Virus record (IMG/VR): IMGVR_UViG_2534682060_000015
Location: 1-28,894 of that record
Origin: a virus
Taxonomy: Duplodnaviria > Heunggongvirae > Uroviricota > Caudoviricetes
Strand: one strand, 5' to 3'
Length of the DNA: 28,894 bases
In this document: piece by piece, positions 3,724 through 28,894 of the stretch
Numbering within the stretch: position 1 is the stretch's first letter
How the letters are laid out: the number at the start of each line of letters is the position of its first letter
Notes under the pieces: model-generated
What the model was told of the DNA's origin: nothing
Database searches by the model: none
What the model saw: the letters and a program-made list of their open reading frames with translations, nothing else
Translations under genes and position numbers: made by a program

Positions 3724-3762
3724 AGCCTTACCCTAGTGGTATCTCATGTTTTGTTCGCGTCT

Positions 3763-4141: not shown

Positions 4142-4219
4142 TTAAATGGCTACGGGGCCAGAAGTCCCAGCTATCCACCAGCAAATAAAAAGTAACTTAA
4201 TTCGATAGCAGGAGTTTTT

Positions 4220-5656: not shown

Positions 5657-5704
5657 AGCAATGCGCCGTAGTTCCTCACATCACGGCACTGATAGTGGTT
5701 ATTC

Positions 5705-5878: not shown

Positions 5879-5928
5879 GTTGTGTACCCCTCATGAAAAA
5901 CAAATGCAGTATGCAGAAAAAAAAATAA

Positions 5929-5980
5929 GTGTTCAACACTTGACGTGTTTAACACCTGAAATTAGATTGGTGTTCAACAC
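5929..5980. promoter_or_regulatory. three near-palindromic operator-like sites GTGTT(C/T)AACAC (5929..5939, 5945..5955, 5970..5980) in a divergent intergenic region
   Basis: Three copies of an 11-bp near-palindrome between the minus-strand RHH-like gene (start 5878) and the + strand gene starting 6078. Confidence 0.55.
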
Positions 5981-6077
5981 CTTGTTGAAGCAAGGTGCAG
6001 AAACGACGAAACCCGGCAGTGCGTCAACACTAACCGGGCTTCTAACCACCAACGATAACGAGAGTATCGAGGTAGCT

Positions 6078-6614: not shown

Positions 6615-6900
6615 TCTGTCAATCTCTGACCTTAACCGCATTCAGTATGACGAGAAATTTACCGGGAGCGTAAAAGCATTGAGGAAGCAGGCTGGATGTG
6701 CACGACTTATTAAGCCGTTAAGGTGTCATCATGATGATGATCCGCACTTTACCGGACGTATGGTGAATCACTACAAAAAAGGCGTTGAGGTATCCTCTGA
6801 ACAGCTACGAGCTGGTTGCTGTTTCGGCACACCACCGGAATTTAGCGAACTGCTGACCCGTTGCGATTACCGGATCATTCAGGGGGAAAGTCATGGGTAA
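6607..6900 (+). CDS. hypothetical protein (97 aa)
   Basis: ATG 6607 with AGGAGG at 6595..6600; overlaps the previous stop (ATGATTAA); MINLSISDLNRIQYDEKFTGSVKALRKQAG... Confidence 0.55.
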   Translation: MINLSISDLNRIQYDEKFTGSVKALRKQAGCARLIKPLRCHHDDDPHFTGRMVNHYKKGVEVSSEQLRAGCCFGTPPEFSELLTRCDYRIIQGESHG

Positions 6901-7093
6901 TCAGCCAGCAACAATGACAATTACCCTGAATGTGCCAGATGATTTCACCGGGCGCGTACTGGTTTACCTGGATAAAGGGAAAGTGAAATCACAATGCCGA
7001 CTGCGAAATAATGAAATAGTAAGTACGGTAGAAGGCTTTTCTGAACTCTGTATTCGTGCAGGAATAAAACCGGAACTGCTGACAGGAAAATAA
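6893..7093 (+). CDS. hypothetical protein (66 aa)
   Basis: ORF start overlaps the upstream stop; part of a tightly packed + strand operon. Confidence 0.45.
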   Translation: MGNQPATMTITLNVPDDFTGRVLVYLDKGKVKSQCRLRNNEIVSTVEGFSELCIRAGIKPELLTGK

Positions 7094-7097
7094 AACC

Positions 7098-7388
7098 ATG
7101 AAAAAGAAAAATTCTGGCTTTACTGCCAGCGGCCTCTCTCGGTCTGCAATTCGCTCTGGCGATATTTACCGCGACACCAGACGTGGGGGACGAGTGGTTA
7201 TTCGTCACGTTACGCCAGGAAATATCACCTACCGCCGTGAGGCTTACGAATATGACTGCGTAATGCCGCGCCGTCAGTTTGAGCGTGATTTTATTCTGGT
7301 GGAAAACAAAGAACAGGCAGTAGCGAGACGTGCAGCCTCGAGTATTAAAAAAATCCGGGCAATGTTGGTAGCTGGGGGTAAGAAGTGA
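7098..7388 (+). CDS. hypothetical protein (96 aa)
   Basis: ORF with stop overlapping the start of the large ATPase gene (7385). Confidence 0.5.
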   Translation: MKKKNSGFTASGLSRSAIRSGDIYRDTRRGGRVVIRHVTPGNITYRREAYEYDCVMPRRQFERDFILVENKEQAVARRAASSIKKIRAMLVAGGKK

Positions 7389-12621: not shown

Positions 12622-14121
12622 TTATACATTGTATGCGAGGTAATCATATAATGCTAAAAGTTTCCGATAATCAGTATGAGATTTGTCCTTAAACTCCCGG
12701 ACATGTTTTTCTAAATCTTCTAAGGGTATATGTTCATCATGAGCATTGAAGAAAATAATATTTTGTAATTTGCTATAACTATCAGAATGTTTAGCGTAAA
12801 TATCTTCAATGGTATGTTCTACTATTCTTTGATTCTTGGGTAACCTTGAATAGTTTAGATTTATTAATCTTTTTTGATTTTTCATTAATGATGTTAAGCA
12901 TTTAACACCTGGGCTGAATTTATGAAAAGCATAAGCTGGGAAATATGATCTTTTATTGATGGTGAACTTGTCAAGCAACTCGACAACATGTGATTCCTTA
13001 TTTGAAATTAGATCAAAATAGTTTTCCATCATCTCCTGAGGTGTTTGCATGTATATTTTTATAGAGTTAACAGAACCGACGGCTAGAACAAGCTCATCAT
13101 TTCTGAGTGTCTCCAAATCCCCAACAAGTTTTACTTTTATGTCTCCACCTTCCTTTATTTTACCAAAGATACTCTCTACTCTGCGTATATCCATTACCGA
13201 AACTGGTAAGTGGAGTTGAGCAAGTTCTTTATATATATCTGAGAAGTTATCTGTAACGATTTTATTAATGCTAATTAACCCTGCATCTTCTACTTCGAGA
13301 TCGTGAGAGACAATGTTTAAATTATCAATACCTTCTTCTCTTTCAATAAGAAGGAAGTTGTTTTTTATTTTTTCTGCAATTTTAGAACGAGGTGGTATGT
13401 ATGAGAATATTGTTTTTAATACTTTTTTTATATTCGGATCACCTATTCTATATCCCATAAATATAATCGGATTATGTATAAACAAGGATAGGAGTTGAGC
13501 ACGAATTAATTCATATTTTTTATCAAAATGAATATAGTCATCACTGGTTATTATTATGGATTCTGGTTTGCTAACGCATCCGTGAATTTTATAAACAGAA
13601 CCATAAGGATTGCTTAAAAGTATATCATTTCCAATAACAGGATTATAACCAATTGCACTTTCGATAAAATTATCATAGTTTGTCGTAATCACAGAGGCAA
13701 TGTTTTTTGAGGCCTTTACTAATTCAGATATTTCATCTTGAACTCCTAATTTTAAATCTGTGATATTAACCACCTGTGAAAGATAGATTTTAAATCTGCT
13801 GATATTTGAGGATATATCTTCCGACTCGTAGTATAAGTCATTGATATATTTGAACTTTCCATTCCTGTCTGCTTTTAGTGTTGCATCAAAAATTTGCTCT
13901 AATTGCGTTGCTACTTTTGGAAGGTCTACAATACCATCTTTATTGCTGTTTTCTCTGACAAGATCTTTATAGAGTTCATTAGAATTTGTCAGGTCAATAC
14001 TAATTTTCTCTAAGAGTGCCGGCCAGCTATAAGAAATTGATAAGTATCTCATGCTGAAACCTGCTCCAACAAATAATATTGGGTGGTTTCTGTAGCCTTT
14101 TAGAAAATCCGTTATATTCAT
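12622..14121 (-). CDS. SIR2-domain protein (499 aa): N-terminal SIR2-like NAD+ hydrolase domain plus unassigned ~300-aa C-terminal domain; candidate defence effector
   Basis: Rossmann motif PILFVGAGFS (aa 14-23), TTNYDNF (aa 146-152) and YKIHG (aa 178-181), the residue pattern of defence-associated SIR2 domains (ThsA/DSR-type Asn and His); GGAGG four nt upstream of the ATG (rc of 14122..14130); strongly AT-rich. Confidence 0.7.
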   Translation of the reverse strand: MNITDFLKGYRNHPILFVGAGFSMRYLSISYSWPALLEKISIDLTNSNELYKDLVRENSNKDGIVDLPKVATQLEQIFDATLKADRNGKFKYINDLYYESEDISSNISRFKIYLSQVVNITDLKLGVQDEISELVKASKNIASVITTNYDNFIESAIGYNPVIGNDILLSNPYGSVYKIHGCVSKPESIIITSDDYIHFDKKYELIRAQLLSLFIHNPIIFMGYRIGDPNIKKVLKTIFSYIPPRSKIAEKIKNNFLLIEREEGIDNLNIVSHDLEVEDAGLISINKIVTDNFSDIYKELAQLHLPVSVMDIRRVESIFGKIKEGGDIKVKLVGDLETLRNDELVLAVGSVNSIKIYMQTPQEMMENYFDLISNKESHVVELLDKFTINKRSYFPAYAFHKFSPGVKCLTSLMKNQKRLINLNYSRLPKNQRIVEHTIEDIYAKHSDSYSKLQNIIFFNAHDEHIPLEDLEKHVREFKDKSHTDYRKLLALYDYLAYNV

Positions 14122-14212
14122 TTGACCTCCGAGATATATTAGCGGTAATCATTAAAATTTGTAAGAACACAGCTCAAGTATGTATTTAGCTGTAGAGATA
14201 AGAATTTACTTG

Positions 14213-15340
14213 TTATTGACCATTTGGATAGTAAATTTTCATAAGCCTCTCTTTTTCTTTGTTGAATTCTTTATCAAAATCAAATTTTTTGTCTAAATTA
14301 GAATGTAAGTCATTTAACGCTTTAACAAGAACCCAAGCGCTGTGGTGGATGAATGGGTTTAATCCAATAATGTTTCCTGCAGAATTATCGTCAACTTTCT
14401 CAACTGCTAAAATCGCTTGGATTTTTTTACAGCTTTCCTGAATATTCCAATCTGAAACATGTAGTAATAATGCAGATAAAGCCATGAGTGGGTTGTTTGC
14501 TTTAATAGATGTAGGGGTGTAACTAATAATCATACGGAGTCGAGGGTGGTAGTCTCGAATCAGTCTCGCCATTCGAGTAGCTATCTCATATTTTTCGTTG
14601 AGAATTGATCTGTCAAATGTTGACGTCCCAGAGTCTTTAATTAATATAGTTCTTGCTTTTTTGACTACTGATTTAAGTCTTACATTCCAAAGCTCAGGAT
14701 TCTCATGACGGTCTAGATAGAATTGAGGATGCTTGAAATAAAGAGATTGATATACTTCCTCGTTGATATCGAACCAACTTTTGTTTATGGCGCTGAGATC
14801 GACAACATAATTATCATTGTTTCTCTTATATCTAATCAATGAGGCCTTTGCAAGGTAGATTATGTGAGGGCTTAAATTAAATGTAAAAGTGCCTTTTTCT
14901 CTTAAATCTAAGAACCATTGGCGCATGTTACGTATATCTTCTTGCGTAAAAATCTTCTCCTGAATTCCCGCACAGACCATAAGACCTATTAAGCGTGTCG
15001 CTTCAGAACCCGAGCGCATAAAATCAATTTGGCCTTCATTTGAAACAACGTTCAACTTATCATCGCCAGTATAAAAATCACAAAATGGGAGGTGAGAGTC
15101 TTTACCTAGATTGTCTCGAAATGCAAAGTGTGCTTGCTTTACAACTTTGCCGTTACTGAGAGATCTTCCTTCCGAAACGTAATAACCACCAGAAACATTG
15201 CATGCCGGGCATTCAACATCCTCTTTAACAAAATCTCTAAAACTTAGAGAAGGATCTGAGTTGCTACGTTCGAAAAGGTTTTCCAACTGCTTAGCATCCA
15301 GCTCACGCTTAAATTTTCTAGAATAGGCCGTTATCGTCAT
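14213..15340 (-). CDS. hypothetical protein (375 aa from ATG 15340; track ORF extends to TTG 15406), upstream partner of the SIR2 gene
   Basis: ATG at 15340 has AAGGAG 6 nt upstream (rc of 15347..15352); no Walker A, TIR or other motif recognised by eye; contains CPAC and PFCDFY cysteine motifs; ~90-bp gap to the SIR2 gene, same strand. Confidence 0.6.
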   Translation of the reverse strand: MTITAYSRKFKRELDAKQLENLFERSNSDPSLSFRDFVKEDVECPACNVSGGYYVSEGRSLSNGKVVKQAHFAFRDNLGKDSHLPFCDFYTGDDKLNVVSNEGQIDFMRSGSEATRLIGLMVCAGIQEKIFTQEDIRNMRQWFLDLREKGTFTFNLSPHIIYLAKASLIRYKRNNDNYVVDLSAINKSWFDINEEVYQSLYFKHPQFYLDRHENPELWNVRLKSVVKKARTILIKDSGTSTFDRSILNEKYEIATRMARLIRDYHPRLRMIISYTPTSIKANNPLMALSALLLHVSDWNIQESCKKIQAILAVEKVDDNSAGNIIGLNPFIHHSAWVLVKALNDLHSNLDKKFDFDKEFNKEKERLMKIYYPNGQ

Positions 15341-15365
15341 TTCGGTCTCCTTTCGAAGGGAGCTT

Positions 15366-15393
15366 AACTTTATCATAGGATGATCATAAAGGG
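15366..15393 (-). promoter_or_regulatory. imperfect palindrome CTTTATCATAGGATGATCATAAAG just upstream of the cassette RBS
   Basis: Arms CTTTATCA / TCATAAAG with one mismatch; holds two TATGAT hexamers on the minus strand; 14 nt upstream of the AAGGAG RBS. Confidence 0.35.
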
Positions 15394-15635
15394 AGCTGTA
15401 CGGCAAACATCACTAAGGTTGGGCCTGAAACACAAATTCCCTAAGTGCAATTTTGACGTCTAACTTACTTGATGTGCTTCAAGGCGGTTCTTACATTGTG
15501 GTATCAACAACAATAGAATGTTTTTTAAACAATTTAGATAGCAACAAGCAAGTCTGGGGGTACTTTTGGGGGTATCTAATGATTGCGTAATAGTTTTTTT
15601 ATATACATATCAATGTGTTGATTTCTACAATTTGT

Positions 15636-15653
15636 TCCTATTATCGGCACCAT
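15636..15653. repeat. attR core: second copy of TCCTATTATCGGCACCAT
   Basis: Exact 18-bp copy of tRNA-Thr 3' end (1428..1445); the 21-bp motif GGGGGTACTT(A/T)TGGGGGTAT lies inside the island near both cores (1560..1580 and 15556..15576). Confidence 0.75.
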
Positions 15654-16261
15654 CAAGAAAATCAATAACTTAGCTTAGCTTCTCTAAGAAATTGTATCTT
15701 CTGTTATCACTTACAAACGCCTATACGTTGTTATGGGCTTTGGTAGTGTAACACGTATGGGCGAGTAGTTCCCAGGCTCAACCTCGTAACAAGTTCCTTT
15801 GAAGCTGGAAGACGTGCCACCGTCTCTAAACCTTCTACCAAAACTCTTAGCAAGATGTTCCACACCTGGCGCGGTGTCCAATGATGCTACACGTCGAGAT
15901 GACGTTGCAGAGGATAAACAGGCTAAATGATGGGAAGAGTAGTTTTAAGTGCATAGTGGATTAAAGCCCACCTCTTCAAAACCTAACTTGATCGGGAAAG
16001 AATCAAGCTCTAGCACGGTTTCGTCCACCGGAGTACAACGGGTGCCTGATAAGAGAAGAACTGCTAAGACTTCATAGCTTTTGTGAAAAAGCCCTTTTTA
16101 GTGGATACGCCTACGGCGCTTATTTTTTGGGGTAGCCCATCAAAGGCGCTTTATGGCTCCTATTGTCTTGAAAATGTATCTTTACTTGTATTGTGTTTTA
16201 TGCGTAGTCTCCCTGTGTAGTATGTAACTTGTTAATTTTCATATGAATACAGAGGCACACG

Positions 16262-16414
16262 ATGAAAAACATTGCAGCTATCAAACGTAATAACCGCAAG
16301 ATTCACGCTCGTAAGTTCCTGTCTACGCCAGAAGGAAAAGCCTGGCTAGAGCGTAAACAGAGAGAGAACGAAGAAAGAAAACTCCTTAGTGAGTTGAAAT
16401 GGCTTAAGGATTGA
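16262..16414 (+). CDS. small basic hypothetical protein (50 aa)
   Basis: Hand-found ORF MKNIAAIKRNNRKIHARKFLSTPEGKAWLERKQRENEERKLLSELKWLKD with AGAGG 6 nt upstream; followed by a long hairpin. Confidence 0.35.
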   Translation: MKNIAAIKRNNRKIHARKFLSTPEGKAWLERKQRENEERKLLSELKWLKD

Positions 16415-16428
16415 ATCACCAGTAGGCG

Positions 16429-16476
16429 CATAACACATCCAGCGATCAAAGATGTGTTTATGCGCCTGATAGTGAA
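16429..16476. terminator. long near-perfect hairpin (16-bp stem) between convergent small ORFs
   Basis: AGGCGCATAACACATC (16429..16445) pairs with GATGTGTTTATGCGCCT (16460..16476); no clear U-tract on either side. Confidence 0.35.
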
Positions 16477-16480
16477 ATTA

Positions 16481-16639
16481 TTAAAGTCGTTTAGTTAACA
16501 TCGCCATTGCTTGAGCAATAATTGCAACAGCGTCCATCTCTTCACTGGAAGCGATGCAAATGCGGTAACTAATAGCCACAATGAATACATCAATAACGAG
16601 AAAGTGAATAGTGTGAAGATGTTTTGAAAGTAAATGCAT
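16481..16639 (-). CDS. small hydrophobic hypothetical peptide (52 aa)
   Basis: Hand-found ORF MHLLSKHLHTIHFLVIDVFIVAISYRICIASSEEMDAVAIIAQAMAMLTKRL with GGAGG 5 nt upstream (rc of 16645..16649); convergent with 16262..16414. Confidence 0.3.
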   Translation of the reverse strand: MHLLSKHLHTIHFLVIDVFIVAISYRICIASSEEMDAVAIIAQAMAMLTKRL

Positions 16640-17033
16640 AACTTCCTCCGGTTTTGGGATAGGAGGATTAGAACATGCATTAAATGATGTTGCAAGAATG
16701 GCAATTTACCCTAATAGTCTACTATTCACCTCAATCTACGTCAACCAATATTTGATGTAGATTTAATTTTCTTTTAAAAACAATATGTTGTTATTTGTTG
16801 AATTTTGGGGTTAGGTTGTTTTTTGAACGTTTTCATCAAGTGTAAAGATACGTTTAGCCTTCATAGTGAGTTCAGTTACTGTCTTTTTCTCTGAAATCGG
16901 CGCAAACGTGATCATCGCTTGAGGTTGCTGCTCTTACTTCTCAAATTGTGATGGAGAACGATAAAGGTTAGAGGGCACTTTTATTTTTTTAAGCAAGTGT
17001 ATAGCATAAGAATAATCTAAAAAGGGAGGTTAT

Positions 17034-17585
17034 ATGCGCAGGTCTGCATTTGTGAGGATGATGATTTTTACAACGTTGTTTGTAGGGGGAACTTCTACCG
17101 CAGTTGCTAAAAACTGCAAAAAAGGAATACCTTGTGGTAACTCGTGTATAGCTGTTGGTAAGACGTGCCGGATTGGCTCTTATGCCCCTTCATCTTATAA
17201 AAATCATTCATACTCTTATCCTTCATCCTCTATTCGAAGCTCGCAATCAAATAATTCACGAAAAACTGAAGGAGTGAAAACGACTCCTGCTGCCAAAAAT
17301 TATCTTTGCCAATACTCTATTGCATCAATCGAAAACGGACGTTTAGGGGCATTACGTGTTCAGGGATACGCACAAGTAACTTTATATGCAGATAGCTTCA
17401 AGGCTAACAGATTAAATGGAACATATTTGATATCGCCAAAACTGAATGCTAACGGCAAGTTTATGATGGCAGATGATAAAAGCAAGGTTTATGCTTATGA
17501 TTCTTGGCTATTAAATTTTGCAATAAGCGATCGTATCACAAGAACGACAGAACAATGGGATCGATGTAAGCTCAATCAAAAATAA
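17034..17585 (+). CDS. secreted hypothetical protein with Sec-type signal peptide (183 aa)
   Basis: N-terminus MRRSAFVRMMIFTTLFVGGTSTAVA-KN (basic n-region, hydrophobic core, AVA cleavage motif); GGGAGG 4 nt upstream; Cys-rich mature N-terminus. Confidence 0.55.
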   Translation: MRRSAFVRMMIFTTLFVGGTSTAVAKNCKKGIPCGNSCIAVGKTCRIGSYAPSSYKNHSYSYPSSSIRSSQSNNSRKTEGVKTTPAAKNYLCQYSIASIENGRLGALRVQGYAQVTLYADSFKANRLNGTYLISPKLNANGKFMMADDKSKVYAYDSWLLNFAISDRITRTTEQWDRCKLNQK

Positions 17586-17603
17586 CAGTTAGAGAAGCTC
17601 TTG

Positions 17604-17660
17604 TAGAGGCATTATTGAGTTATTGATTTTAATATTTTTGTGCCTCTATGGGCTTTTTTT
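17604..17660 (+). terminator. terminator-like hairpin plus T-run after the secreted-protein gene
   Basis: TAGAGGCA (17605..17612) pairs with TGCCTCTA (17641..17648) over a long loop, then GGGCTTTTTTT (17651..17660). Confidence 0.35.
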
Positions 17661-18740
17661 GCCTTTTTGCAAAGTAGGAGAGAGCACAGGAATCGTTAAA
17701 ATTAATTATTGGGGTATTTAAGGTTATTTTCAGGTGGTTTAAGGGTATTAAACTTGATTTAATTGATTAAAATATAAACAGATAGTCCTGTATCTTATTG
17801 ATTTATAAGGTTATTTTTAAATTAAGGTAAATAAAAAATAAATAGCCATAAATAGCTATAAATACATCTAAATACCTTTATCCCTTCCCTTATGGCTAGA
17901 TTGCGAGAAGTGCTTAACGCGATTTTCACCGCCCCCCGATCTGGAAAATCCAGAATCCCCAAATATCAGCAAGGAATTTTCTTGCGTAATCAACATCGTT
18001 TTTACCAATTAAATCATTACACAGAAAGCCTTTCTGTAATGTCTCTCACTAAACTTTCACTAAACACGAGAATGATCGGTTTTATGTCGGATCAGATGCT
18101 AGAAACAGCACCACGTCTCACAAGGGCTGTAAGCGATGAAACCAGTGTTTATGCGGGTGCAGGTCAAAATATGGGCCAAAATCCATTTAACATAATAAGC
18201 GTAATATGCACTAAGGAACACATAGAACGCCTTGAGTTGATGTATAAGGGGAAAAGTGGTGGATTTTTTACGTAGGAGCACGAGAGGGCTTCTATTGACT
18301 TTTGTATGCTATGAAATATAATAGAAGGTTTTTATTTTTATGTTGATAGTGATTGCACATTAAAGATTGAAAGCAAATTTAAACATAAATTTTCAACACG
18401 TGAAAGAACTTGTTCGACAAATGATAGAACGTTTATTGAGCAACAATTTTGCAGTGATGCGCTATATGCCGCATAACATAAGGCTTTGCTGATGATGACG
18501 CAAAAGTGAAGAAAGCTAACATTGCACTTTTTAAGCTACTTTTCATTGGATTTTTACGTAGGAATTACACAGGGATTAATCATCAATTACATTGAATTTA
18601 AGCCTGTTTTAGATGTTTAATTTTGGTAGCAAGAAACACTTTTAGAAGATCATTGCACAGATGTTATGTGATGATTGGATGTAACGGTAGGTCACTGTGA
18701 GCTACCCCTATCAAGTCTGATACCCGATAAGTATAAATAA

Positions 18741-18843
18741 CACCTGGGAAATGAGTTCCGATCTATTTAGGAAATAACCGTGGAAGTGGTTTCCTACCTA
18801 CCTAGGAAATGAGTTCCTATCACCTAGGAAATGATTTCCGACA
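18741..18843. repeat. cluster of palindromic repeats (CACCT)(A/G)GGAAATGA(G/T)TTCC in a long ORF-free region
   Basis: Copies at 18741..18763, 18801..18817 and 18821..18843, plus the related GGAAATAACCGTGGAAGTGGTTTCC between them; each unit carries inverted GGAA/TTCC half-sites. Confidence 0.55.
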
Positions 18844-19704
18844 ATACTATAATTAAACTACAATTAAACTATATAATATAATTCTTTTTTATCTTTATAA
18901 GAATAATTATAGGGATACCCGTTAGGGAGTCTAACGACTATCCCTTAATCTATTGGCATTCGCCAGAACCTTGCACAAGTTAGAGTGTTAGTCGTTAGAC
19001 TGCTTGTCATAACACATAGTTTTTGTTTGTTGATGTTAGTTAGTAGATCTATGTTCGCTAATGCCGCTCACAACGAATATGTAATCTACTATGTGCAAAT
19101 AGCCTACGGCTTGCGTAAGGCTAAATAGTCTTGCGCTGTGCGCTGTGCGCTTCAATAGTTCCATTGATGAGGCTTACGCCAATCTAACGATCATCAATCT
19201 ATTTAAGAGAAAATCTATTGTGCAATACTCTGACGAGTGCAATAACCTTGTGTGCTACGCGTTAGCGATGTTAGCACATAGACACAGACAACAACCAACA
19301 ACAAACAAAAAAGAATGGTTTTAGTAGTTGAAGGTTAAATAAGTTTCTACCGCTTAAATCAAGCCGTAGGCGAGCTAAACGTATATAAGGCAGGGAAACC
19401 TTAGCGGTAATAGATTAGCTCATTATAGAGCTTCTGAGGAGCTTTACAGGTATTTTATAAGGTGTCTGAAATTAGAGTTTATCTATCATCTCCTTTTCAT
19501 ATACCTAACAAATACAAAATAAGCCCCTTAAATAAACCTCTGGCGAGCTAAACTGTCATTACATAAGGGAATGTATTGTTTTTATCAAAACCTCGTTAGA
19601 ACGCGTTTTAGAGAATAAGGAAGAATAGCATCACACAGAAGAGCACGAATTGCTAAGTAAAATCATAACATACTGAAAAATGATTAATATTTTATGGGCG
19701 GGGG

Positions 19705-19733
19705 TTGACAAAAGCCTTTAGTTATGGTAAAGT
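19705..19733 (+). promoter_or_regulatory. sigma70-like promoter (TTGACA, 17-bp spacer, TAAAGT)
   Basis: Perfect -35 TTGACA at 19705..19710, 17-nt spacer, -10-like TAAAGT at 19728..19733; about 120 nt upstream of the small ORF at 19857. Confidence 0.4.
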
Positions 19734-19856
19734 AATATTAGGGGCAGGAAAACATTCCTATCCTCTAAATAATTAAACCAATGCACCGCACTTTGAAGCC
19801 CAAGAGGCTTGCAAGGTGTCTTTTTCTTTTAACCAAATAGAATAGGAGGTTAATTA

Positions 19857-20033
19857 GTGAAGTATTTCACTTCTCAAGATGTAGTTGAAGCCTGGAAACG
19901 TGGTGAGATCAACCGCTTTAGGGTAAGAATGAATAGGAACACAGCGCGACGCTGTGGTTATCCAGAGCGTGAAAAATGTTTTGACGATGCACTAAAAATT
20001 ATTGATGAACTGCGTAAAGCAGAGAAAGAATAA
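19857..20033 (+). CDS. small hypothetical protein (58 aa)
   Basis: GTG start with AGGAGG at 19845..19850; VKYFTSQDVVEAWKRGEINRFRVRMNRNTARRCGYPEREKCFDDALKIIDELRKAEKE. Confidence 0.4.
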   Translation: MKYFTSQDVVEAWKRGEINRFRVRMNRNTARRCGYPEREKCFDDALKIIDELRKAEKE

Positions 20034-20056
20034 TAACAGGAGAAGGAGAAAACCAA

Positions 20057-20245
20057 ATGAATATTAATTTTGATTCTGCAACTTATAACGCGTTGTTAAA
20101 TCGTGCAAAGGCAGAAGGGAAATCAATTCCAAAACTTGTTAATGAATTACTAATTACAGTCCTTACAAAGGAGGAACTAAATGATCAAAAATATCAAAAC
20201 AATTGCCGAAGCGAAAGCCAAATGTCTAAATCAGAAAGATGGTAA
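20057..20245 (+). CDS. ribbon-helix-helix (CopG/Arc-like) DNA-binding protein
   Basis: MNINFDSATYNALLNRAKAEGKSIPKLVNELLITVL follows the beta-strand/helix/helix pattern of RHH regulators; AGGAGAAGGAG upstream. Confidence 0.55.
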   Translation: MNINFDSATYNALLNRAKAEGKSIPKLVNELLITVLTKEELNDQKYQNNCRSESQMSKSERW

Positions 20246-20849
20246 ACAAAAATATGTAGTCGTTGAGCAGTGGTTGAAGATGTTTAAAAAGTGGTTCTCA
20301 CCGTCAGGTAATGAATACACCGCTACACTGCCAGCCGTTGAAATCTATAGCTATATAGCTGGATTCAATGAACAAGGGCAAGAATGTTACGCCACTCAAA
20401 AAACATTATCTAATATTGGAATGGTTAGTGATCGCCAGGTTCGCAATATTATAAATATGTTTGTTGATATGGGAGTTCTTTCTGTAGAGGCTCGGGACGG
20501 GCAAACATCACTCTATAAAGCATTACCATTCACAGATGCACATATTACTCCCCCTGGAGAGTCATCACTACCTGATCCTTCTGAGAAAGAAGACGAATCT
20601 AATGAAATATTGAATGTTTCAGAAATCATCATTGAAGAAGAAACACAGGAATCAGAGTTCCCTGAGCGGCCCGAAATTTTTACTTGGCTTCTTTCCCTTG
20701 ATAAGAAGAAACCACCGCACGAAGAAACAGAAGATTTTGTAAAACGAGCATTAGATTCAAAGAATATCTATCTTGAGAAACAGGCTTTTCACGATCTGAT
20801 AATATCTCTAAGAGAAAAAAGTGAAATATACGATTCAATACCATTCTAA
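20181..20849 (+). CDS. winged-HTH protein resembling N-terminal domains of phage/plasmid replication initiators, acidic C-terminus
   Basis: YATQKTLSNIGMVSDRQVRNIINMFVDMGVLSVEARDGQTSLYK is an HTH-like segment; AAGGAGG 6 nt upstream of ATG 20181; acidic tail. Confidence 0.45.
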   Translation: MIKNIKTIAEAKAKCLNQKDGKQKYVVVEQWLKMFKKWFSPSGNEYTATLPAVEIYSYIAGFNEQGQECYATQKTLSNIGMVSDRQVRNIINMFVDMGVLSVEARDGQTSLYKALPFTDAHITPPGESSLPDPSEKEDESNEILNVSEIIIEEETQESEFPERPEIFTWLLSLDKKKPPHEETEDFVKRALDSKNIYLEKQAFHDLIISLREKSEIYDSIPF

Positions 20850-21032
20850 GGAGAGTAAATGACTTATAACAGCACTACATTTCGTCTTTTGAAATTAAAC
20901 AAAGATTTTGAATTGTTTATCACAAACAATCAATAACAACAGATCGGGCAATACATATGGCAAATGCATTTATGGCGATATTCATCGTAACTATGGCATT
21001 AAGTTTTTATAATCCACATAAAAAGAGGGAAA

Positions 21033-21419
21033 ATGGGAAGAAAGAAAAAGAACAACTTAAAACGTATTGAAAAAAACAGTAATTTCAATTCAACAAGACA
21101 ACGTCCACCGACACATACCAATAACGAAATTCCAGGGGAAGAGATAATCTTCATTTTAGAATCTAACAGCCCACCACTTACAAACGAAGAATTAGAAATT
21201 ATTCAATCAATGGGTGATGGTGTGTATTTCAAACCCAGAACAAGAAAGACAACGATTATAGAACCTGGCACATTAAAGAAATGGCAGCTGTTAAATTTTA
21301 CCAGCTACAGGCACTATATCGGTTTTAATAGTTTCAACAATCAGGTAGGCGGCGTTACAGAAACAGATCTGATGCAGCACCTGATCGACACTCTCGCATC
21401 TAACAAACGTTCAAACTAA
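21033..21419 (+). CDS. hypothetical protein (128 aa)
   Basis: Track ORF; first gene of a tightly packed three-gene block. Confidence 0.4.
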   Translation: MGRKKKNNLKRIEKNSNFNSTRQRPPTHTNNEIPGEEIIFILESNSPPLTNEELEIIQSMGDGVYFKPRTRKTTIIEPGTLKKWQLLNFTSYRHYIGFNSFNNQVGGVTETDLMQHLIDTLASNKRSN

Positions 21420-21436
21420 AAATAAAAGGAACAACA

Positions 21437-21640
21437 ATGATCGACCATATACAGGAAACACAATTATTTCAGATGATCTTGTCTGATGCAAAAAACTATG
21501 CTGAGTTAATTCGGCTGGCAAAAGAAACAGAAGACTACGAAGCATTAGAGCGTTACCGTGATGAAGTGCTGACGCTCAAGACACCTTTTAACATCGTATT
21601 GAATATGATTAATGATGCATTACAAGGAGAATACGCATAA
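21437..21640 (+). CDS. hypothetical acidic protein (67 aa)
   Basis: Track ORF; stop overlaps the next start. Confidence 0.4.
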   Translation: MIDHIQETQLFQMILSDAKNYAELIRLAKETEDYEALERYRDEVLTLKTPFNIVLNMINDALQGEYA

Positions 21641-21948
21641 TGGAAGAAGATATTAGCAATGCAATGGAACAACTTTTAGATCTGACTATCTCACTACAAA
21701 CAAGAATAAATCAAGCCTATTCAGATTTATGCGATTACACGCTCTCTCAATGCGTTATTAGCTTAATGAAGGTGAATGTAAGCCTTGACGATTTTATCTC
21801 TCTGGTGAGCGATTTAGAGCTAATTGAGGACGATGCCAAGATGTGCACTCAAACCATCACAGACACCGCCAGCACGTTAAAGGCTGCAAGTGAAGAGATT
21901 CAGCAATTAGTAGATGATTTAGCAAAAAGTGCTATTTTCTCTAAATGA
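21640..21948 (+). CDS. hypothetical acidic protein (102 aa)
   Basis: Track ORF, translationally coupled to the upstream ORF. Confidence 0.4.
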   Translation: MEEDISNAMEQLLDLTISLQTRINQAYSDLCDYTLSQCVISLMKVNVSLDDFISLVSDLELIEDDAKMCTQTITDTASTLKAASEEIQQLVDDLAKSAIFSK

Positions 21949-22852
21949 TAATGAAAATCATTTGCATTTATAACGATTTCATTATATAATGATATTAGGG
22001 GTAGATAAAAAGGTTTTGACTGGTGTTAATCCTTTTCCTGTCATAAATCCCTGCATATGGAAGGTGATAGCCTCAAAGGTTGAATGGCATTAACCTCTAA
22101 CAAATATTACCTTCCATCCCCTCAAGAAGTTTTAGAATAATCATAACTCCCTCTTTGATTGTTGATTGTTTCTACGTTGTGTTGATGAATGTTGTTAGGC
22201 ATTGTGCTTAATTTTGATAAAAGCGGGTAGGTGTTATCTCCTTGCCCTTCCCGCTCTTATTTTTCATCTATGCTTATCCTAAAGCTCCTTATTTTGTCCG
22301 AAAACATTAAAGAGCCTTACACTGATAGTTATATTTTATAACTATTTACTAACATCATTAAACTCTTATTTAATGACAGAAGTTAGTAACAGAATAATCT
22401 ATTAAGTTGTTGTCAAAAACAATCATCTGCATAGCGTTAGCCGCAAGCAGAGAGAGTTTAGCTAAGAATTGTGCAATAACCTTTGGAAATATTGATAGCA
22501 AAACGGGTTTTATAGACTGCAAATCTATAATCTTTGGTTGTAAAAAAGCTTTTTCTGAAACGGTAGATTACTGTTGGTGTAGTTAATCCCTATTAAAATT
22601 TAATCTGTGAGTAGATTGGAACAGTGATTCCTTAAAATCTGACTGGTGCATCCACACCATGAAAGATAGCGGTTAGCCACCGCGCCCCGAATAGATATTC
22701 CTGATTGATTCCGCATGTTTTCCTAAGAGCATGTTTTCAGGAATATCTGTTCACCCTTTAAACCTATCTTTAAGCATGTTTAATAAGCATTCTTAGAGAT
22801 ACGTTTAAAACCTCCTCAAGGTTTTACTTATCGCTGTGTATTGCCCGACACG

Positions 22853-22912
22853 TTAATAAATCCCCCTCGCTATTGTCAGATTGAACCTCTTATAGCCTGG
22901 GGGATTTATTAA
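22853..22912. promoter_or_regulatory. perfect 14-bp inverted repeat TTAATAAATCCCCC / GGGGGATTTATTAA upstream of the structural gene block
   Basis: Arms 22853..22866 and 22899..22912 separated by 32 nt; about 30 bp upstream of ORF 22941. Confidence 0.45.
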
Positions 22913-22940
22913 ATTCCAACATAATGGAATCGTTATATAA

Positions 22941-23150
22941 ATGAAACAAGAAATTATCCTGAAATATGGCAATGAAAAGTTAACACTAACTGAAGATGTG
23001 TTGAATGCTACAGCCTACGCGCTTGGCATCACTCCCACAGAATTAAAGAAACAGTGTGAACGTCTTTATAAGGCTGAAAGCAATAAACCATCTCACCAAG
23101 ATTTGATTAATGCTAAAGCTCAACAAATCAAACAATCTAAGGAAAAATAA
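22941..23150 (+). CDS. hypothetical protein (69 aa)
   Basis: Track ORF; stop overlaps the start of the next gene. Confidence 0.4.
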   Translation: MKQEIILKYGNEKLTLTEDVLNATAYALGITPTELKKQCERLYKAESNKPSHQDLINAKAQQIKQSKEK

Positions 23151-23524
23151 TGGCTATTTTAAAATTAAGCGATGTTTTCCCACATCGTAAAAGCATCACT
23201 GACGTAGTGAGCTATGCAACCGACCCTTACGCGGCTGTAGAAAGCAAAAAATTTGCAGCACTTGCACAAGATGTAACGTGCGGCGACCTCATTGATTCAT
23301 CCGGCGCTAAATATGTTAGCGGCGCTGATGTTCTTGTCGTTGTGTCTGACTTCGTAACTGCTGATTCAAATAAAACAGTTAACGTGCTTCGTGCTAATGC
23401 CGGACTTGTTTGCATCAAAGCTGATGCCCTGAATGCCGAAGGCGCTGTAAAAGAAGCTGCTATTGCAGCTCTCGCTGCTAAAGGCTTCCAGCTTGAAGGC
23501 TTCCACTCTGTTTTCACATCTTAA
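23150..23524 (+). CDS. putative phage head protein (decoration- or scaffold-like, 124 aa)
   Basis: Ala/Val-rich small protein immediately upstream of the capsid-like gene; functional call is by position and size only. Confidence 0.3.
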   Translation: MAILKLSDVFPHRKSITDVVSYATDPYAAVESKKFAALAQDVTCGDLIDSSGAKYVSGADVLVVVSDFVTADSNKTVNVLRANAGLVCIKADALNAEGAVKEAAIAALAAKGFQLEGFHSVFTS

Positions 23525-23540
23525 GAAGGAATAAATAATA

Positions 23541-24569
23541 ATGATTATCGGAAATGAAGTGGTTGATCTTGCTCCACTGTTCGAATTAAACGACTCACGC
23601 AATTACCTACTGTCTACTCTGGATTTTACTGATCCTGTGCCTGTAGAAAGTCACAAAGTGGCTGTTTCCCAGCTTATCGAGAGCAATGAATCTCTGTTCA
23701 ACCATCCTACAAGCCGTTTTAGCTCTGAGCATAACGTTACTAAGCGTGAGAACGGGGAAGAATGGCTGATTGAAATCCCTTACTTCCTGCGTGAAGACCT
23801 GATCAAACCGCAGGACGTGCAAGGCAAACGCAAAGCCGGAAGCTCTATTGAAGAAACACTGCCGGATCTGTATGCGGAATATATCGCTAAACACAATGTT
23901 GCATTCCAGCGCACTAAAGAAAGCATCCTCGCGGCTTCTCTGTTCTCTGGCAAGACACATACCCCGAAAACTGACGATGTTCTGATCGATTACAGCATTC
24001 TGTTCGGTGTGTCTCCAATGACTGCAACCGTTGACGCATCCAGCACCAACACAATGACCGTATTCAAGCAATTTGATCAGATGCATACGGATATGATTGC
24101 TAAGGCACAAAGCCAGGCTGCAACCATTGAGCGTGTTGTTGTGTTCTGTAAACCTGCGGCATTCAACGCTATTCGTTACAGCGTTGGCATGGTTAATGCG
24201 TTCCAGTATGCAAGCCCTGTAGACGATGCAAACGTGGTGTTTAATGTGCGTTCTCTGCTGCCTGGTGTAACTACTTTCACCATTCCAGGAACTAACATTG
24301 ATCTGATCAAAGTGACTGATCCGCTGCTGCTGGCACATATGACCGCAGACGCTGTAGCTGTTCCTAAATTCGCTAAAGGTGCAGGTGTTTACCAATCTAT
24401 TTATGGCGCTCCTTCCAGTTCCTTCGATCTGCTGTCCCAAGGTGCAAAAGAGTATTACAGCTATGCTTTCGAATCGAATCGCGGCGACGCAGTGCACGTA
24501 GTGACCGAGAATAGCTCGCTTGTGGTTAACCACGGTGTTGGTTTCTCTGTTCAGATTACAGTGGCGTAA
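23541..24569 (+). CDS. putative phage major capsid protein (342 aa)
   Basis: Size and position after a small head-like protein; C-terminal segment ...VVNHGVGFSVQITVA resembles the C-terminus of lambda-type major capsid protein E as I recall it. The antisense 337-aa ORF on the opposite strand is treated as spurious. Confidence 0.45.
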   Translation: MIIGNEVVDLAPLFELNDSRNYLLSTLDFTDPVPVESHKVAVSQLIESNESLFNHPTSRFSSEHNVTKRENGEEWLIEIPYFLREDLIKPQDVQGKRKAGSSIEETLPDLYAEYIAKHNVAFQRTKESILAASLFSGKTHTPKTDDVLIDYSILFGVSPMTATVDASSTNTMTVFKQFDQMHTDMIAKAQSQAATIERVVVFCKPAAFNAIRYSVGMVNAFQYASPVDDANVVFNVRSLLPGVTTFTIPGTNIDLIKVTDPLLLAHMTADAVAVPKFAKGAGVYQSIYGAPSSSFDLLSQGAKEYYSYAFESNRGDAVHVVTENSSLVVNHGVGFSVQITVA

Positions 24570-24969: not shown

Positions 24970-26811
24970 ATGTTAGACCTTACCGTCAGCCGCTTATCAA
25001 ACGTTGTCACCTTCCAGGTTGATCGACCATCATTAGAGAAAGCAAAAGCAGAAGTAGAAAAACTTCGTAAACAAATGGCGGCTGTGAAAGATATAGAATT
25101 GCGTGTTAAGACACATAAACAATCAACCGCTAAAGCAAAAAAAGACGTAGACGATATTGCTAAAAAGCAAGCACAGGCTGATAAAGCTAATGCTAAAGCA
25201 CAATTAGCCGCTCAACGTGTAGTTGCAAGAGAACAAAAAGCCCTGGCAGCACGCAAAGAGAAGGCAGACTTAAAACTGTTAGACGTTGGATCAAGCATTA
25301 GTGCATTGCACCGCCTTTCTGTAGCGGAACAATATAAAGCTATTGCACAGGCTAGAGAAATTGCCCTCCAATATGAAAGAGGAGCTATTAGTCTGGCACG
25401 TATGAATAGCCAAATGAAACGCCTACAACAGCAACAACGTAAGATTAATGGCAATCGTAACGCTCACGCTAAAGCCTATGCACCTGTTAAGGGTAGCGGG
25501 AGTATTGGCGGCGGTGCTGCGGCTGTTATGCTGGGTGGCTTAGGCGCTGGCGCTACGTATATGGCTATGAGCAAAGCCTCTGAATTTGTTACTAACAGCT
25601 TTGCGAATGCTGAAACGCTGGGTGAATTGTATAGCCGTGCCAAGCTGGGCGGTGTAGACGTTAACCAGATGAACAATATTGAGCAATGGGCATATAAAAA
25701 CGGCGTTGATTCAATGATGGGGGATCAAGGTCGTAGGAAGTATCTCGATCAGATGAAAGATGTACGGGAGAAGGCTACTAAATCTTATGATGAGGCTGAA
25801 TATGTAGTTGATAAGAAAACTGGTAAAGGAGAATGGAAGGGCGGCGATAGCGGCATCAATACTTTAATGAATGAAAGATTCCTAACTAAAAAGGATCTAA
25901 AAGACTTTGCTGATAATCCGGCTGGTCTGGTTAGTAAAGCAGTTCAGGGAATGGTAGCTAAAGGCTATTCAGATGCACAAATCGGTAGTCGTCTGGAAGA
26001 TCTGGCTGATGATTTGATGCTCACCTCTAAATACTGGACACGCTCCGCTAAAGAAGTGGAACAATCAGCACGAGAACAACGAGAATCAGGGCGCTGGGTA
26101 ACGCAGGCACAACAGGAAAGCGTTATTAAATTCCGTGAACTGAATAATGCACTTAGTGGGCTTTCTGACTCACAAGGGATCGCCTTTGTTGATGGCTTTA
26201 TGAAATCTCTTGATCCGAAAGTGATTGAAGAGTTTAAAAAGAGCATGGTTGCAATGCTGCCAATGTTTACCAAATTAGGCGAGGCTATCGGCGGATTGGT
26301 TAACGCTGTAATGAAAGCAATCAACTGGCTGATGAAAAACGACGAGAAGACGGCAGCTATTCAAAAGAATTTAGGGGATGCACCGCCACTATCTAACGAA
26401 GGAATGAAGCAGAATCTTTCTAATCTCACTCCTGATCAATATAAAGGCGCTGGCACCGGAACAACTAAGCCAGATAACAGCAATTCCCTGGTTAACACTA
26501 TTAAAAGCTGGTTTATGCCAGAAGAAACGGTAGGTGGGGCGCAGGCTGTAAATCAATACAGTCTCGAAGGACAAAACATTGCAAATCTGAAACAGAGTGC
26601 AGCACAACAAGCTCTCAAGGCTCCTTCTTACACCTTTGCACCTGTTATTAACTTCAATCCAGAATTACAAGTAAATGCAGAAGTGCCGCTAACTATCGAA
26701 TCAGACACCGGACGATTGAGCGAATTTATCGACTTCAAATCAAAGGCATCCTCCGCTGAGTTTAGCAAGCTATTAACGCTGGGTGTTATGTCAGGCGGGT
26801 CAACCTATTAA
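24970..26811 (+). CDS. phage structural-type protein with N-terminal coiled coil and glycine-rich hydrophobic segment (tape-measure-like or ejection/internal protein, 613 aa)
   Basis: Long Lys/Ala/Gln-rich predicted coiled coil (aa ~20-170), then GSGSIGGGAAAVMLGGLGAGATYMAMS glycine-zipper segment. Confidence 0.4.
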   Translation: MLDLTVSRLSNVVTFQVDRPSLEKAKAEVEKLRKQMAAVKDIELRVKTHKQSTAKAKKDVDDIAKKQAQADKANAKAQLAAQRVVAREQKALAARKEKADLKLLDVGSSISALHRLSVAEQYKAIAQAREIALQYERGAISLARMNSQMKRLQQQQRKINGNRNAHAKAYAPVKGSGSIGGGAAAVMLGGLGAGATYMAMSKASEFVTNSFANAETLGELYSRAKLGGVDVNQMNNIEQWAYKNGVDSMMGDQGRRKYLDQMKDVREKATKSYDEAEYVVDKKTGKGEWKGGDSGINTLMNERFLTKKDLKDFADNPAGLVSKAVQGMVAKGYSDAQIGSRLEDLADDLMLTSKYWTRSAKEVEQSAREQRESGRWVTQAQQESVIKFRELNNALSGLSDSQGIAFVDGFMKSLDPKVIEEFKKSMVAMLPMFTKLGEAIGGLVNAVMKAINWLMKNDEKTAAIQKNLGDAPPLSNEGMKQNLSNLTPDQYKGAGTGTTKPDNSNSLVNTIKSWFMPEETVGGAQAVNQYSLEGQNIANLKQSAAQQALKAPSYTFAPVINFNPELQVNAEVPLTIESDTGRLSEFIDFKSKASSAEFSKLLTLGVMSGGSTY

Positions 26812-27616: not shown

Positions 27617-28894
27617 CTATAGCGTTGTTTTACGCCTTAAATTTGATTTTTTATTGATTGATAAGCCTTTCTCTATTTCAGGGTAGCGTAAAAGCTCAAT
27701 ATATTTTTTAAGCTCTATTGGAGAAGCTGCATTTTTGCTATATGTGCGGAATGTTTCTGTATTGCCGCGTGTATGGCCCAGGAGAAGGGCGATCCTGTCT
27801 TCTGGAATTTGATTTCGATCAAGAAGCTGTGCTACTCCGTGTCTCAGAGAATGAAACACTTTCCTTTCTGTTCCCTTTTCCCCTAAAGCCTTTCGTTTAG
27901 CTCTTGTAAATCGTTGTGTATGCCACGTAGAGCGTTTACCGTCAGCACGCTCTGTAATGCTGGCGTGATAGAACAAAAAGCCATTGTGAGGCTTTTCACG
28001 AAGAGATAACACCAATGGAGTGATAAGGCTATGCACAGGCACAAGACGTGCCGCAGCTTTCGTTTTTCCCTGTGTGATTTCAAAACACAGCACACCTTCG
28101 ATCTCTTTCACATCGTCTATTGTGAGACTTGCTATCTCATTGATCCGCATCCCTGTATATAAACCGATAAGACATAAAGCCGTCATTTCTTTGTTTTCTG
28201 CTGAATTACCGGAAAATACTTGCAACACCTGCAATAGCTCTTTGTTAGAAAATGCCTCGTAGCTCTCTCTACTTTGTGCCACATCAAGCCTATGCCCTCG
28301 CCAGGGGGAGAGCGCCCTTTCTGGCGCATCGTGGTAACGTGATGAAGCTAATTCCCATAGCTGGGCCATTGGGCTGATATAATTTGCAATTGATTGTTGT
28401 GAAAGAGTTTTTTGCATGTGTTCAATCCAGCCTGTAACAGTGGTGCGGCTTACATCTTGCAATGCAATATCAGGCTTTTTACGGTAGGAGAGAAACATCT
28501 CTACCGCTTTTCTTGCCTTAGCTAAAGTGGCTGGCTTCTTCTTCGTGCTGTTAATTGTCAGGTAGATTTCAAGAATTTTAAGCAATGACGGACACGAAGA
28601 CGCTGTATCTTGCATTCTGGTAGCTGTTTTGGCGTATTTAGCCTTACTGCGTAACAGTTCCAGCGTGTTTTCTATTGTGCTGTTTACAGGGGCAACACTC
28701 TCCCGTAAGCAATGGTATTCATCTGCAATCTGATCACGCTTTCTACGTGCAACACGAAGATTACTTGTGTGCAGACTTCTGACAAACGTCCTTTTTCCTT
28801 CAAAAAAGGGCTGCATATACACAGGCAGCGTGATCCTTAAATAGTAGTTACCGTAAGAATCACAGATTAAGTATTGGTTAGGCTTGTATCTCAT
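27617..28894 (-). CDS. tyrosine recombinase / phage integrase (425 aa), start codon at the window edge
   Basis: C-terminal catalytic signature FHSLRHGVAQLL...LLGHT...TFRTYSK (HxxR, catalytic Tyr); RINEIASLTIDD segment typical of the family; the reverse complement of the last window bases is ATGAGATAC. Confidence 0.8.
   Translation of the reverse strand: MRYKPNQYLICDSYGNYYLRITLPVYMQPFFEGKRTFVRSLHTSNLRVARRKRDQIADEYHCLRESVAPVNSTIENTLELLRSKAKYAKTATRMQDTASSCPSLLKILEIYLTINSTKKKPATLAKARKAVEMFLSYRKKPDIALQDVSRTTVTGWIEHMQKTLSQQSIANYISPMAQLWELASSRYHDAPERALSPWRGHRLDVAQSRESYEAFSNKELLQVLQVFSGNSAENKEMTALCLIGLYTGMRINEIASLTIDDVKEIEGVLCFEITQGKTKAAARLVPVHSLITPLVLSLREKPHNGFLFYHASITERADGKRSTWHTQRFTRAKRKALGEKGTERKVFHSLRHGVAQLLDRNQIPEDRIALLLGHTRGNTETFRTYSKNAASPIELKKYIELLRYPEIEKGLSINKKSNLRRKTTL

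Follow-up and report, generated by a model that had tools for sequence, protein, structure and literature searches.

The subject of this analysis is a stretch of about 2.3 kb (positions 17586-19856) in the virus record IMGVR_UViG_2534682060_000015, of which 28,894 nt (referred to here as the window) were analysed, together with the integrative element of about 13.3 kb to which the stretch belongs. The window contains, in order, a chromosomal gene and a tRNA-Thr gene (1369-1444), a P4-like island, and then this second element, which is lower in GC (mostly about 31-47%) and extends from about 15636 to beyond 28894; metagenome contigs of 12.5-13.4 kb start and stop at its limits. Besides an integrase it encodes a Phage_cap_E capsid-like protein, a 613-aa tape-measure-like protein, a Dit-like protein and a 222-aa Rep-like protein. 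The studied stretch was matched in 736 of 5426 complete Escherichia coli genomes (about one in seven), where it is almost always unannotated, and a search of phage records at high stringency gave no match to it. Carriers include ATCC 43886 and E2528-C1, in which it is 98% identical. For comparison we used 16 loci found via Rep, further loci found via a DNA pattern (individual loci carry L numbers below) and metagenome contigs.

A preliminary description, made from the letters alone, had reported that the stretch holds no open reading frame (ORF) of 60 aa or more with a plausible ribosome-binding site (RBS), had listed several classes of repeat along with a promoter, and had offered an origin or operator hub, noncoding RNA genes or a decayed coding region as explanations. 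It can be seen that all six frames are indeed closed, with 48-68 stops each, but a 127-aa ORF and a 60-aa ORF on the minus strand are present, and the remark on the RBS was too strong because a 97-aa version of the former has a TTG start (17982) about 6 nt after AAGGA. When relatives were aligned the stretch proved to be a mosaic, with conserved blocks at 18407-18704, 18843-19380 and 19524-20053 and replaced segments at 16412-18406, 18705-18843 and 20053 to about 20524. Feature coordinates are collected in Table 1.

Match to phage genome ends on an exchanged cassette

What changes the picture of the region most is a match to phage genome ends that had been overlooked. In a sensitive search of phage records, 17895-17940 was 91% identical over 46 bp to 46 phi92-like phages (Justusliebigvirus, virulent myophages of about 148 kb). 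Positions 318-363 are matched in phi92 itself, and these span the inner edge (343/344) of its left direct terminal repeat (DTR), annotated as 343 bp; in the sister elements L001 and L016, 40/40 positions of the site agree with phi92. An alternative cassette, present in L006-L008 and related loci, contains 85 bp that match 65 phAPEC8-like phages at 81% identity (Phapecoctavirus, which like Justusliebigvirus belongs to the Stephanstirmvirinae); in WPEC4 this match, at 273-357, straddles the inner edge (328/329) of a 328-bp DTR that we derived independently from the identical ends of the record. Both phages carry GTTR^AGCAC(C/T)T (^ marking the edge) at both DTR edges, and the element carries the reverse complement of this motif, GAGAAGTGCT^TAACGCGA, at 17905-17922, so a cut in the mimic would be expected between 17914 and 17915. 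Three phages and five satellite variants, once aligned, share one plan, in which the cut motif is followed by about 40 variable bases that go with the phage type and then by CAAATATCA. In the window CAAATATCA lies at 17960-17968, about 45 bp inside the boundary; it is nearly invariant in the alignment, AAATATC being the same in 8/8 sequences and an ending C being found in variant Tr1 only. No other likeness to phi92 was detected when 7.6 kb of the element was aligned to the phi92 ends, and the sharing of 11-mers with 52.6 kb of the phi92 genome was at background level.

The cassette (module A) that bears this site assorts independently of the Rep type and is known in at least three or four versions, one of which, in L009, is a recombinant of both site types. 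Its copy in a second element lineage is about 95% identical, the rest of that lineage being only 70-75% identical to the window, and this points to recent horizontal exchange. Since the cassette moves between diverged element lineages, it is probably a helper-specific packaging site. The phAPEC8-type cassette also has a serine recombinase/invertase gene abutting the mimic (L006 720-1277, minus strand; L009 7027-7566), and because its product is 28% identical (E 4e-9) to phi92 gp053, annotated as a resolvase/invertase, genes are evidently exchanged with these phages. The structural proteins have distant relatives in the phages whose DTR edge is copied by the cassette. For the capsid-like protein (23541-24569), the phage proteins that match best include major head proteins of Phapecoctavirus and Justusliebigvirus (full-length identity 24%, E 1e-7), and Pseudomonas phages match too, while the closest phage relatives of the 613-aa protein (24970-26811) are the tape-measure proteins of Phapecoctavirus and Justusliebigvirus (30% identity, E 6e-25). 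No terminase or portal was recognised among the element ORFs scanned with Pfam and PHROGs, several small ORFs being without any match.

On balance we favour the view that the site mimics the terminal-repeat junction of a helper phage and probably serves packaging. The terminase of the helper would recognise the replicated element and cut it at the copied junction in the cassette core (17895-17970), so that it would be taken up into helper-derived particles, and an exchange of cassettes would change the helper that can be exploited.

Three further observations concern the cassette. The AT-rich DNA upstream of the mimic had been described as phased A-tracts (17700-17880); the base composition and a local AAATA array are genuine (Table 1), but overall phasing is not significant, as 24% of shuffles reach the same power at 10-11 bp. 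A look-alike of the cut motif, GAAAAGTGGT at 18251-18260, lies 346 bp from the first (the phi92 repeat is 343 bp); it is weak and not conserved, and we do not claim it as a second cut site. The 127-aa ORF begins inside the mimic, and its 97-aa version is annotated by the NCBI pipeline as a hypothetical protein in some genomes. Its core (18005-18195) is nearly invariant in DNA, it has no domain or PHROG match, and its homologues (at least 75% identity, 74-154 aa) come from Escherichia and Shigella only. Its N-terminal part differs from one cassette variant to another, and toward the C-terminus the frame shifts between relatives; five cassette copies differ by 12 substitutions, distributed 2:6:4 over codon positions 1:2:3, and 17915-18300 shows no remarkable folding (z -1.3 and -0.7). 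We rather doubt that this ORF encodes a protein, though the chance is by no means small.

Probable iterons, Rep and a putative early promoter

The palindromic repeats reported at 18741-18843 are real and non-random. Matches to GGAAATGAGTTCC within 2 mismatches start at 18747, 18805 and 18827 and a fourth copy, GGAAGTGGTTTCC, at 18782; six matches were observed against 0.63 expected, and 0/100 shuffles gave as many as six. Among relatives the segment 18705-18843 always bears repeats, which are of four unrelated kinds (GGAAAnnnTTTCC; GTAACGnnnCGTTAC; TAACAGAAnnCTGTTA; and direct repeats of GGGGGTAGGTCA). Two coding sequences fall within 20053-20524, which is also replaced, one for a small ribbon-helix-helix (RHH) protein and one for about 110 N-terminal residues of Rep; this part of Rep is likewise of four unrelated kinds, all joined to a conserved C-terminal part. 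We found that the kind of repeat agrees with the kind of Rep N-terminal part in 21/21 classifiable loci, with about 1.3 kb of conserved DNA between the two and with the other modules shuffled. In L013 and L014 the RHH gene is that of type II loci, yet both Rep and the repeats are of type IV. These loci rule out the RHH protein as partner of the repeats, and the partner is therefore Rep. In the alignments inspected, no association was seen of RHH type, promoter allele or the allele of block R1 (Table 1) with any other module.

The Rep of the window matches HTH_36 at 23.3 bits, below the curated cut-off of 25, and matches PHROG replication-initiator, O-like and DnaD-like families at E 3.5e-6 to 1e-3. 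All four Rep types match HTH_36 and phage replication-initiator or O-like families through the variable winged-helix domain. We conclude that the iterons and the AT-rich block beside them very likely form an iteron-type origin, so that the origin hub proposed earlier is the option borne out. The N-terminal winged-helix domain of Rep, encoded 1.3 kb downstream, would bind the iterons of this origin (18741-18912) and open the AT-rich block. A further iteron-like site ahead of the Rep gene is possibly autoregulatory. As an observation noticed after the fact, GTGCAAT occurs five times within 900 bp (18352-19243), three copies lying on the minus strand left of the origin and two on the plus strand right of it; over the whole window there are 10 copies against 5.9 expected, which is not significant.

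The sigma70-like promoter (19705-19733) had been correctly picked out in the preliminary description: its -35 element is invariant in 25 distinct sequences and its -10 element has few variants. A transcript is predicted to start near 19741. The terminator in the leader consists of a 13-bp stem followed by CUUUUUCUUUU, and the lower stem is invariant, with G.U pairs that work on the plus strand only; the 5' hairpin has compensatory changes at two pairs, and the leader fold has z = -2.99. These structures end about 15 nt before the RBS AGGAGG (19844-19849) of the first gene, which has a GTG start at 19857. An early promoter with a terminated leader is a likely reading of this region. Expression of the small-gene/Rep operon would then be gated by read-through of the terminator that stands ahead of it. 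The short leader transcript may also be an RNA in its own right, and of the earlier suggestion of noncoding RNAs it is this leader of about 90 nt (19741-19830) that stands, whereas the hairpin block at 18905-19385 does not.

Table 1. Coordinates of features in and around the studied stretch (window positions)
Feature	Position	Strand	Remarks
P4-like island	1611-2825; 2869-9517		Integrase at 1611-2825; int-alpA, isrK and C4 RNAs and DUF927 primase in region 2869-9517
Left attachment repeat	15636-15653	+	18-bp copy of tRNA-Thr 3' end (window 1428-1445)
Module A, swappable cassette (putative packaging cassette)	17653-18359	+	Occurs alone in other contexts; replaced in most relatives by a different cassette of about 0.85-1.3 kb
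AT-rich DNA	17690-17890		23% GC; just upstream of mimic; local 10-bp phased AAATA x4 at 17840-17875
127-aa ORF	17892-18275	+	Begins inside mimic; coding status doubtful
Mimic of terminal-repeat junction of presumed helper	17895-17970	-	Reverse complement of phi92 DTR-end/unique-sequence junction
Terminator-like hairpin	18272-18295	+	Right end of cassette
Promoter-like site	18295-18322	+	Near-consensus TTGACT-16-TATAAT; after hairpin 18272-18295; points toward origin; -35 is TTGACA in L005
Block B1	18407-18704		Kept in all lineages; many 1-nt, frame-breaking indels; no excess folding; ends in TAACGGTAGGTCACTGTGAGCTA beside iterons
Iteron cluster	18741-18843		Dyad-symmetric 13-mers at 18747-18759, 18782-18794, 18805-18817, 18827-18839; half-site near 18768
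AT-rich block	18844-18912		69 bp, 11.6% GC; directly after iterons; presumed DNA-unwinding element
Block R1	18913-19385		Hairpin/palindrome-dense; 12-bp inverted repeat, TGGCATTCGCCA, TAGCCTACGGCTTGCGTAAGGCTA, TGCGCTGTGCGC (19132-19150), TGCAAT-N11-TGCAAT (19221-19243)
Optional segment	19386-19523		Between direct repeats 19353-19380 and 19524-19553 (D8, core GGCGAGCTAAAC); missing in many relatives
Block upstream of promoter	19524-19704		Conserved
Early promoter (putative)	19705-19733	+	-35 TTGACA-17-TAAAGT; extended -10, TG-n-TAAAGT
Leader (putative)	19738-19831	+	About 90 nt, 19741-19830; 5' hairpin 19738-19768; terminator stem 19788-19819, U-run to about 19831
Extra iteron-like site	20118-20130		GGAAATCAATTCC, 2 mismatches; 51 bp before Rep start
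Rep, probable initiator	20181-20849	+	222 aa; variable N-terminal winged-helix domain, conserved C-terminal part
Tyrosine integrase	27617-28894	-	Right part of element; reaches end of window

Interpretation of the region and its alternatives

From the observed sequence features, their conservation, the phage matches and the covariation of Rep with the iterons, we conclude, with a probability that we would put at roughly two in three, that the stretch is the cis-acting control region of a phage-derived integrative element, most likely a satellite of Stephanstirmvirinae, and not a product of decay. A wider proposal, which we hold only tentatively and would not yet call probable, is that the element represents an undescribed E. 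coli satellite family living on large virulent Stephanstirmvirinae, that its helper range is set by the exchanged cassette, and that its other hairpin-dense noncoding DNA (18407-18704, 18913-19704 and 21950-22940) consists of regulatory elements of a new type.

Several points weigh against the satellite interpretation. Packaging, origin firing and replication, read-through of the terminator and dependence on a helper are all steps that we infer. About 1.1 kb of conserved DNA (18407-18704, 18913-19704) has no assigned role. A position-weight scan found one cut motif per element, compared with one at each DTR boundary in the phage. Metagenome contigs of 12.5-14.6 kb have no terminal overlap and give no sign of a circular or packaged form, a result that is uninformative either way on packaging. 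A further cassette variant in L081 (1155-1250) has the cut motif GAACGGTTCAGCACGA, a different sequence over the next 40 bp or so and a retained AAATATCA, and it matches none of the phages in the collection; it could reflect an unsampled helper or a decayed site. The Rep types score only 19.9-24.9 bits against the Pfam cut-off of 25, and neither a DnaA box (TTWTNCACA) nor an integration host factor site (WATCAANNNNTTR) was found in 17586-19856, such sites being common, not universal, in iteron origins. The terminator formed part of the DNA search pattern by which some of the sequences were gathered. Its conservation is therefore in part built in, and independent conservation can be claimed for the promoter and the 5' hairpin only. 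Finally, the 127-aa ORF leaves room for a small protein.

A potential explanation of the phage-end match that would not need to invoke packaging is that it is a relic of recombination, a decoy that serves defence by titrating the helper terminase or misdirecting it, or a shared regulatory site. The single junction motif and the contigs just mentioned are in keeping with this, as are the recombinant cassette of L009 and the kinship of the cassette recombinase with phi92 gp053. A relic, however, would not be expected to stay 40/40 identical to the phage amid unrelated surroundings, to have a counterpart that matches another phage genus at the corresponding junction, or to sweep between element lineages as a cassette; a decoy is compatible with a role in packaging, and known satellites both decoy and package. 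We regard a site of this non-packaging kind as unlikely. It is also conceivable that the palindromic repeats are operators for a transcriptional repressor and that the winged-helix protein is a regulator, since each repeat is dyad-symmetric, another copy is found 51 bp ahead of the start of Rep, and the Pfam match of Rep is to a generic helix-turn-helix family and below the curated cut-off. We give this little credence: an 11.6% GC block directly follows the repeats, no gene is so located that they could control it, the next one being 1 kb downstream with its own promoter, the phage families that the four variants match best are those of replication initiators, O-like proteins and DnaD-like loaders, and the iterons of lambda O and of RepA of the Vibrio cholerae satellite PLE are dyad-symmetric too (PMC8263062).

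The possibility that about 18905-19400 encodes one or more large structured noncoding RNAs, with the repeats as helices, derives its appeal from folding. On both strands the fold of 18905-19385 is considerably better than those of shuffled sequences (z -4.85 and -4.50), structure is also present in the non-homologous block that occupies this place in the L009 lineage (z -3.57), and two local hairpins, the spacer of TGCAAT-N11-TGCAAT and 19252-19280, preserve their shape between both alleles by double changes. However, the minimum-free-energy pairs of 18905-19385 are kept in relatives in only 31% (plus strand) and 27% (minus strand) of variant states, compared with 32-55% for slid controls; 37/146 pairs of the consensus fold are broken in at least one sequence, neither strand is favoured, and sub-elements of R1 are deleted in relatives that are otherwise intact. 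A large conserved RNA over this segment is rejected, as its pairs are not retained, and on the same three grounds (unkept pairs, broken consensus pairs, deleted sub-elements) we take R1 to be a field of short palindromes rather than one conserved RNA. There is also no conserved promoter or terminator around the block. Rfam, a check that had been proposed for noncoding RNAs, gave no match at gathering score in the stretch and none credible at E of 10 or below in 15400-23200; in the noncoding regions of L006, L009 and L058 there was none either, the only matches being a tRNA in the flank and, outside the element, a sar RNA. Covariation has little power in 18905-19400 because the variation there consists essentially of two haplotypes, and we judge the structured RNA explanation decidedly unlikely. 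We tentatively read the short-palindrome-rich blocks 18407-18704 and 18913-19704 as protein-binding or accessory sites.

Two repeats in R1 to which the preliminary description had drawn attention did not hold up as functional units. The 12-bp inverted repeat is present and extends to 18 nt at 89% (18928-18945/18984-19001), but it is not conserved as a hairpin: its arms vary independently and each is deleted in some intact elements. The TGCGCTG run is likewise there (TGCGCTGTGCGC at 19132 and 19139) but is better explained as a deletion scar between two copies of TGCGCTGTGCGC, which in relatives flank a unit of about 100 bp, than as a functional triple repeat.

Decay of a coding region, the last of the earlier options, would fit the persistence of the 127-aa ORF, annotated as hypothetical in some genomes, and the presence of a recombinase gene at the position of module A in other elements. 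We consider it highly improbable. There is no tblastn trace of this recombinase anywhere in the region, all frames contain 48-68 stops, blocks with 1-nt indels are conserved across hundreds of genomes, and particular sub-features have assignable cis-acting roles. Moreover, the ORF-poor layout of about 2 kb upstream of the promoter is kept both in the 736 genomes and in the lineage that is only 70-75% identical.

Known satellites, significance and neighbouring features

Control regions that combine origin and packaging site are known in kind from other satellites. The PLE of Vibrio cholerae is a satellite of the virulent myophage ICP1 and has its origin in a noncoding region (PMC7145576, PMC8263062); its iterons are semi-palindromic, and it has been demonstrated experimentally that variants of its initiator are specific to cognate origins and that the replication module is exchanged (PMC8263062, PMC7145576). 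Like PLE, the element described here is integrative, has a probable noncoding iteron origin, appears to exploit a virulent myophage and pairs its presumed initiator with the origin, seen here as 21/21 covariation. It differs in its host and presumed helper, the phage matches here being to E. coli Stephanstirmvirinae, and in its Rep, which is of the HTH_36/O-like winged-helix kind with no RepA_N match, whereas the PLE initiator is RepA_N. Unlike PLE, it encodes its own capsid-like and tape-measure-like proteins, and for the swappable helper-junction mimic cassette we have no PLE counterpart to cite.

P4 and the cos and pac phage-inducible chromosomal islands (PICIs) are satellites that bear a copy of the packaging site of their helper and are packaged by the helper terminase, their helpers being temperate cos or pac phages. 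The element resembles these in its short helper-derived cis site (if this does act in packaging), its integration at a tRNA gene and its tyrosine integrase. In contrast to them, the copied site is the DTR junction of virulent phages of about 150 kb and lies on a cassette with several versions, and the hallmark RNAs and primase of P4 (2869-9517) sit in the adjacent island, not in the studied element. Capsid-forming PICIs (cfPICIs) carry a full head and packaging set of terminase, portal, protease and connectors. The element is similarly a small integrative satellite-like unit with its own capsid protein but, unlike cfPICIs, has only capsid-like, tape-measure-like and Dit-like proteins that could be recognised, with no terminase match. 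The origin is reminiscent of lambda ori and O, with four dyad-symmetric iterons by an AT-rich block and an initiator whose N-terminal domain would set specificity while the C-terminal part is conserved; the lambda ori lies inside the O gene, whereas here it is 1.3 kb upstream in noncoding DNA, and the likeness to O-like PHROG families is weak (E 1e-3 to 1e-5).

Three things appear to be new within the literature searched: the family to which the element belongs, the helpers that it seems to have, and the swappable cassette with its terminal-repeat junction; no prior description of the element was found in that literature, which leaves out most subscription journals, so that this is not proof of novelty. 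If the satellite interpretation is right, a parasite of phi92- and phAPEC8-type phages resides in about one complete E. coli genome in seven, and the element could blunt such phages, move DNA between strains in their particles and confound work on host range and therapy, the Stephanstirmvirinae genera including phages considered for therapy. It would also supply a candidate terminase recognition and cut site for the phage subfamily (GTGCT^TAACGCGA, about 40 bp, CAAATATCA), and the exchanges of the cassette and of Rep with its iterons would amount to a natural experiment on the switching of helper and of replication in satellites, parallel to PLE and ICP1. If it is wrong, the stretch is still a well-delimited, conserved noncoding hub of 2 kb and an origin with a directly testable specificity pairing.

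Beyond the studied stretch, a second ORF-free gap (21950-22940) folds strongly on the plus strand (-285.9 kcal/mol against -209.9 +/- 6.6 for shuffles, z = -11.5) and, 17 kcal/mol more weakly, on the minus strand (z = -8.0). It has a promoter-like site at 21961-21990 and no Rfam match. In 13 distinct relatives, 52% of the variant states retain the plus-strand pairs and 33% the minus-strand pairs, and the plus strand shows 13 double changes against 4-9 in slid controls; the gap is missing from the divergent lineage (L058). It is a candidate for a large structured RNA or a hairpin array between the replication and structural genes. To its right, 22957-24564, comprising a 124-aa ORF and the capsid-like gene, is occupied in many relatives by a different sequence of about 1.6 kb, and this swap is independent of both cassette type and Rep type.

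The Rfam matches at gathering score at 2869-2936, 6186-6262 and 6284-6371 (int-alpA, isrK and C4 antisense RNAs) belong to the P4-like island and not to the studied element. At the far end of this island two cargo genes lie on the minus strand (12622-15406); one encodes a 397-aa partner protein without a PADLOC match and the other a 499-aa SIR2_2 protein for which PADLOC gives a match to its candidate defence family PDC-S25 (E 2e-139). The island and the studied element stack at one attachment site, since their order is reversed in E. coli E-93, where the element lies directly at the tRNA and the P4-like island on the other side; window 1396-1445 maps to L001 18022-18071 and window 15636 onwards to L001 18054 onwards. 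The 112-nt 'tRNA-Ser' annotated in E-93 (L001 17959-18070) has a 3' 50 nt identical to the tRNA-Thr of the window, and it looks like a hybrid that arose from stacked integrations rather than a normal tRNA.

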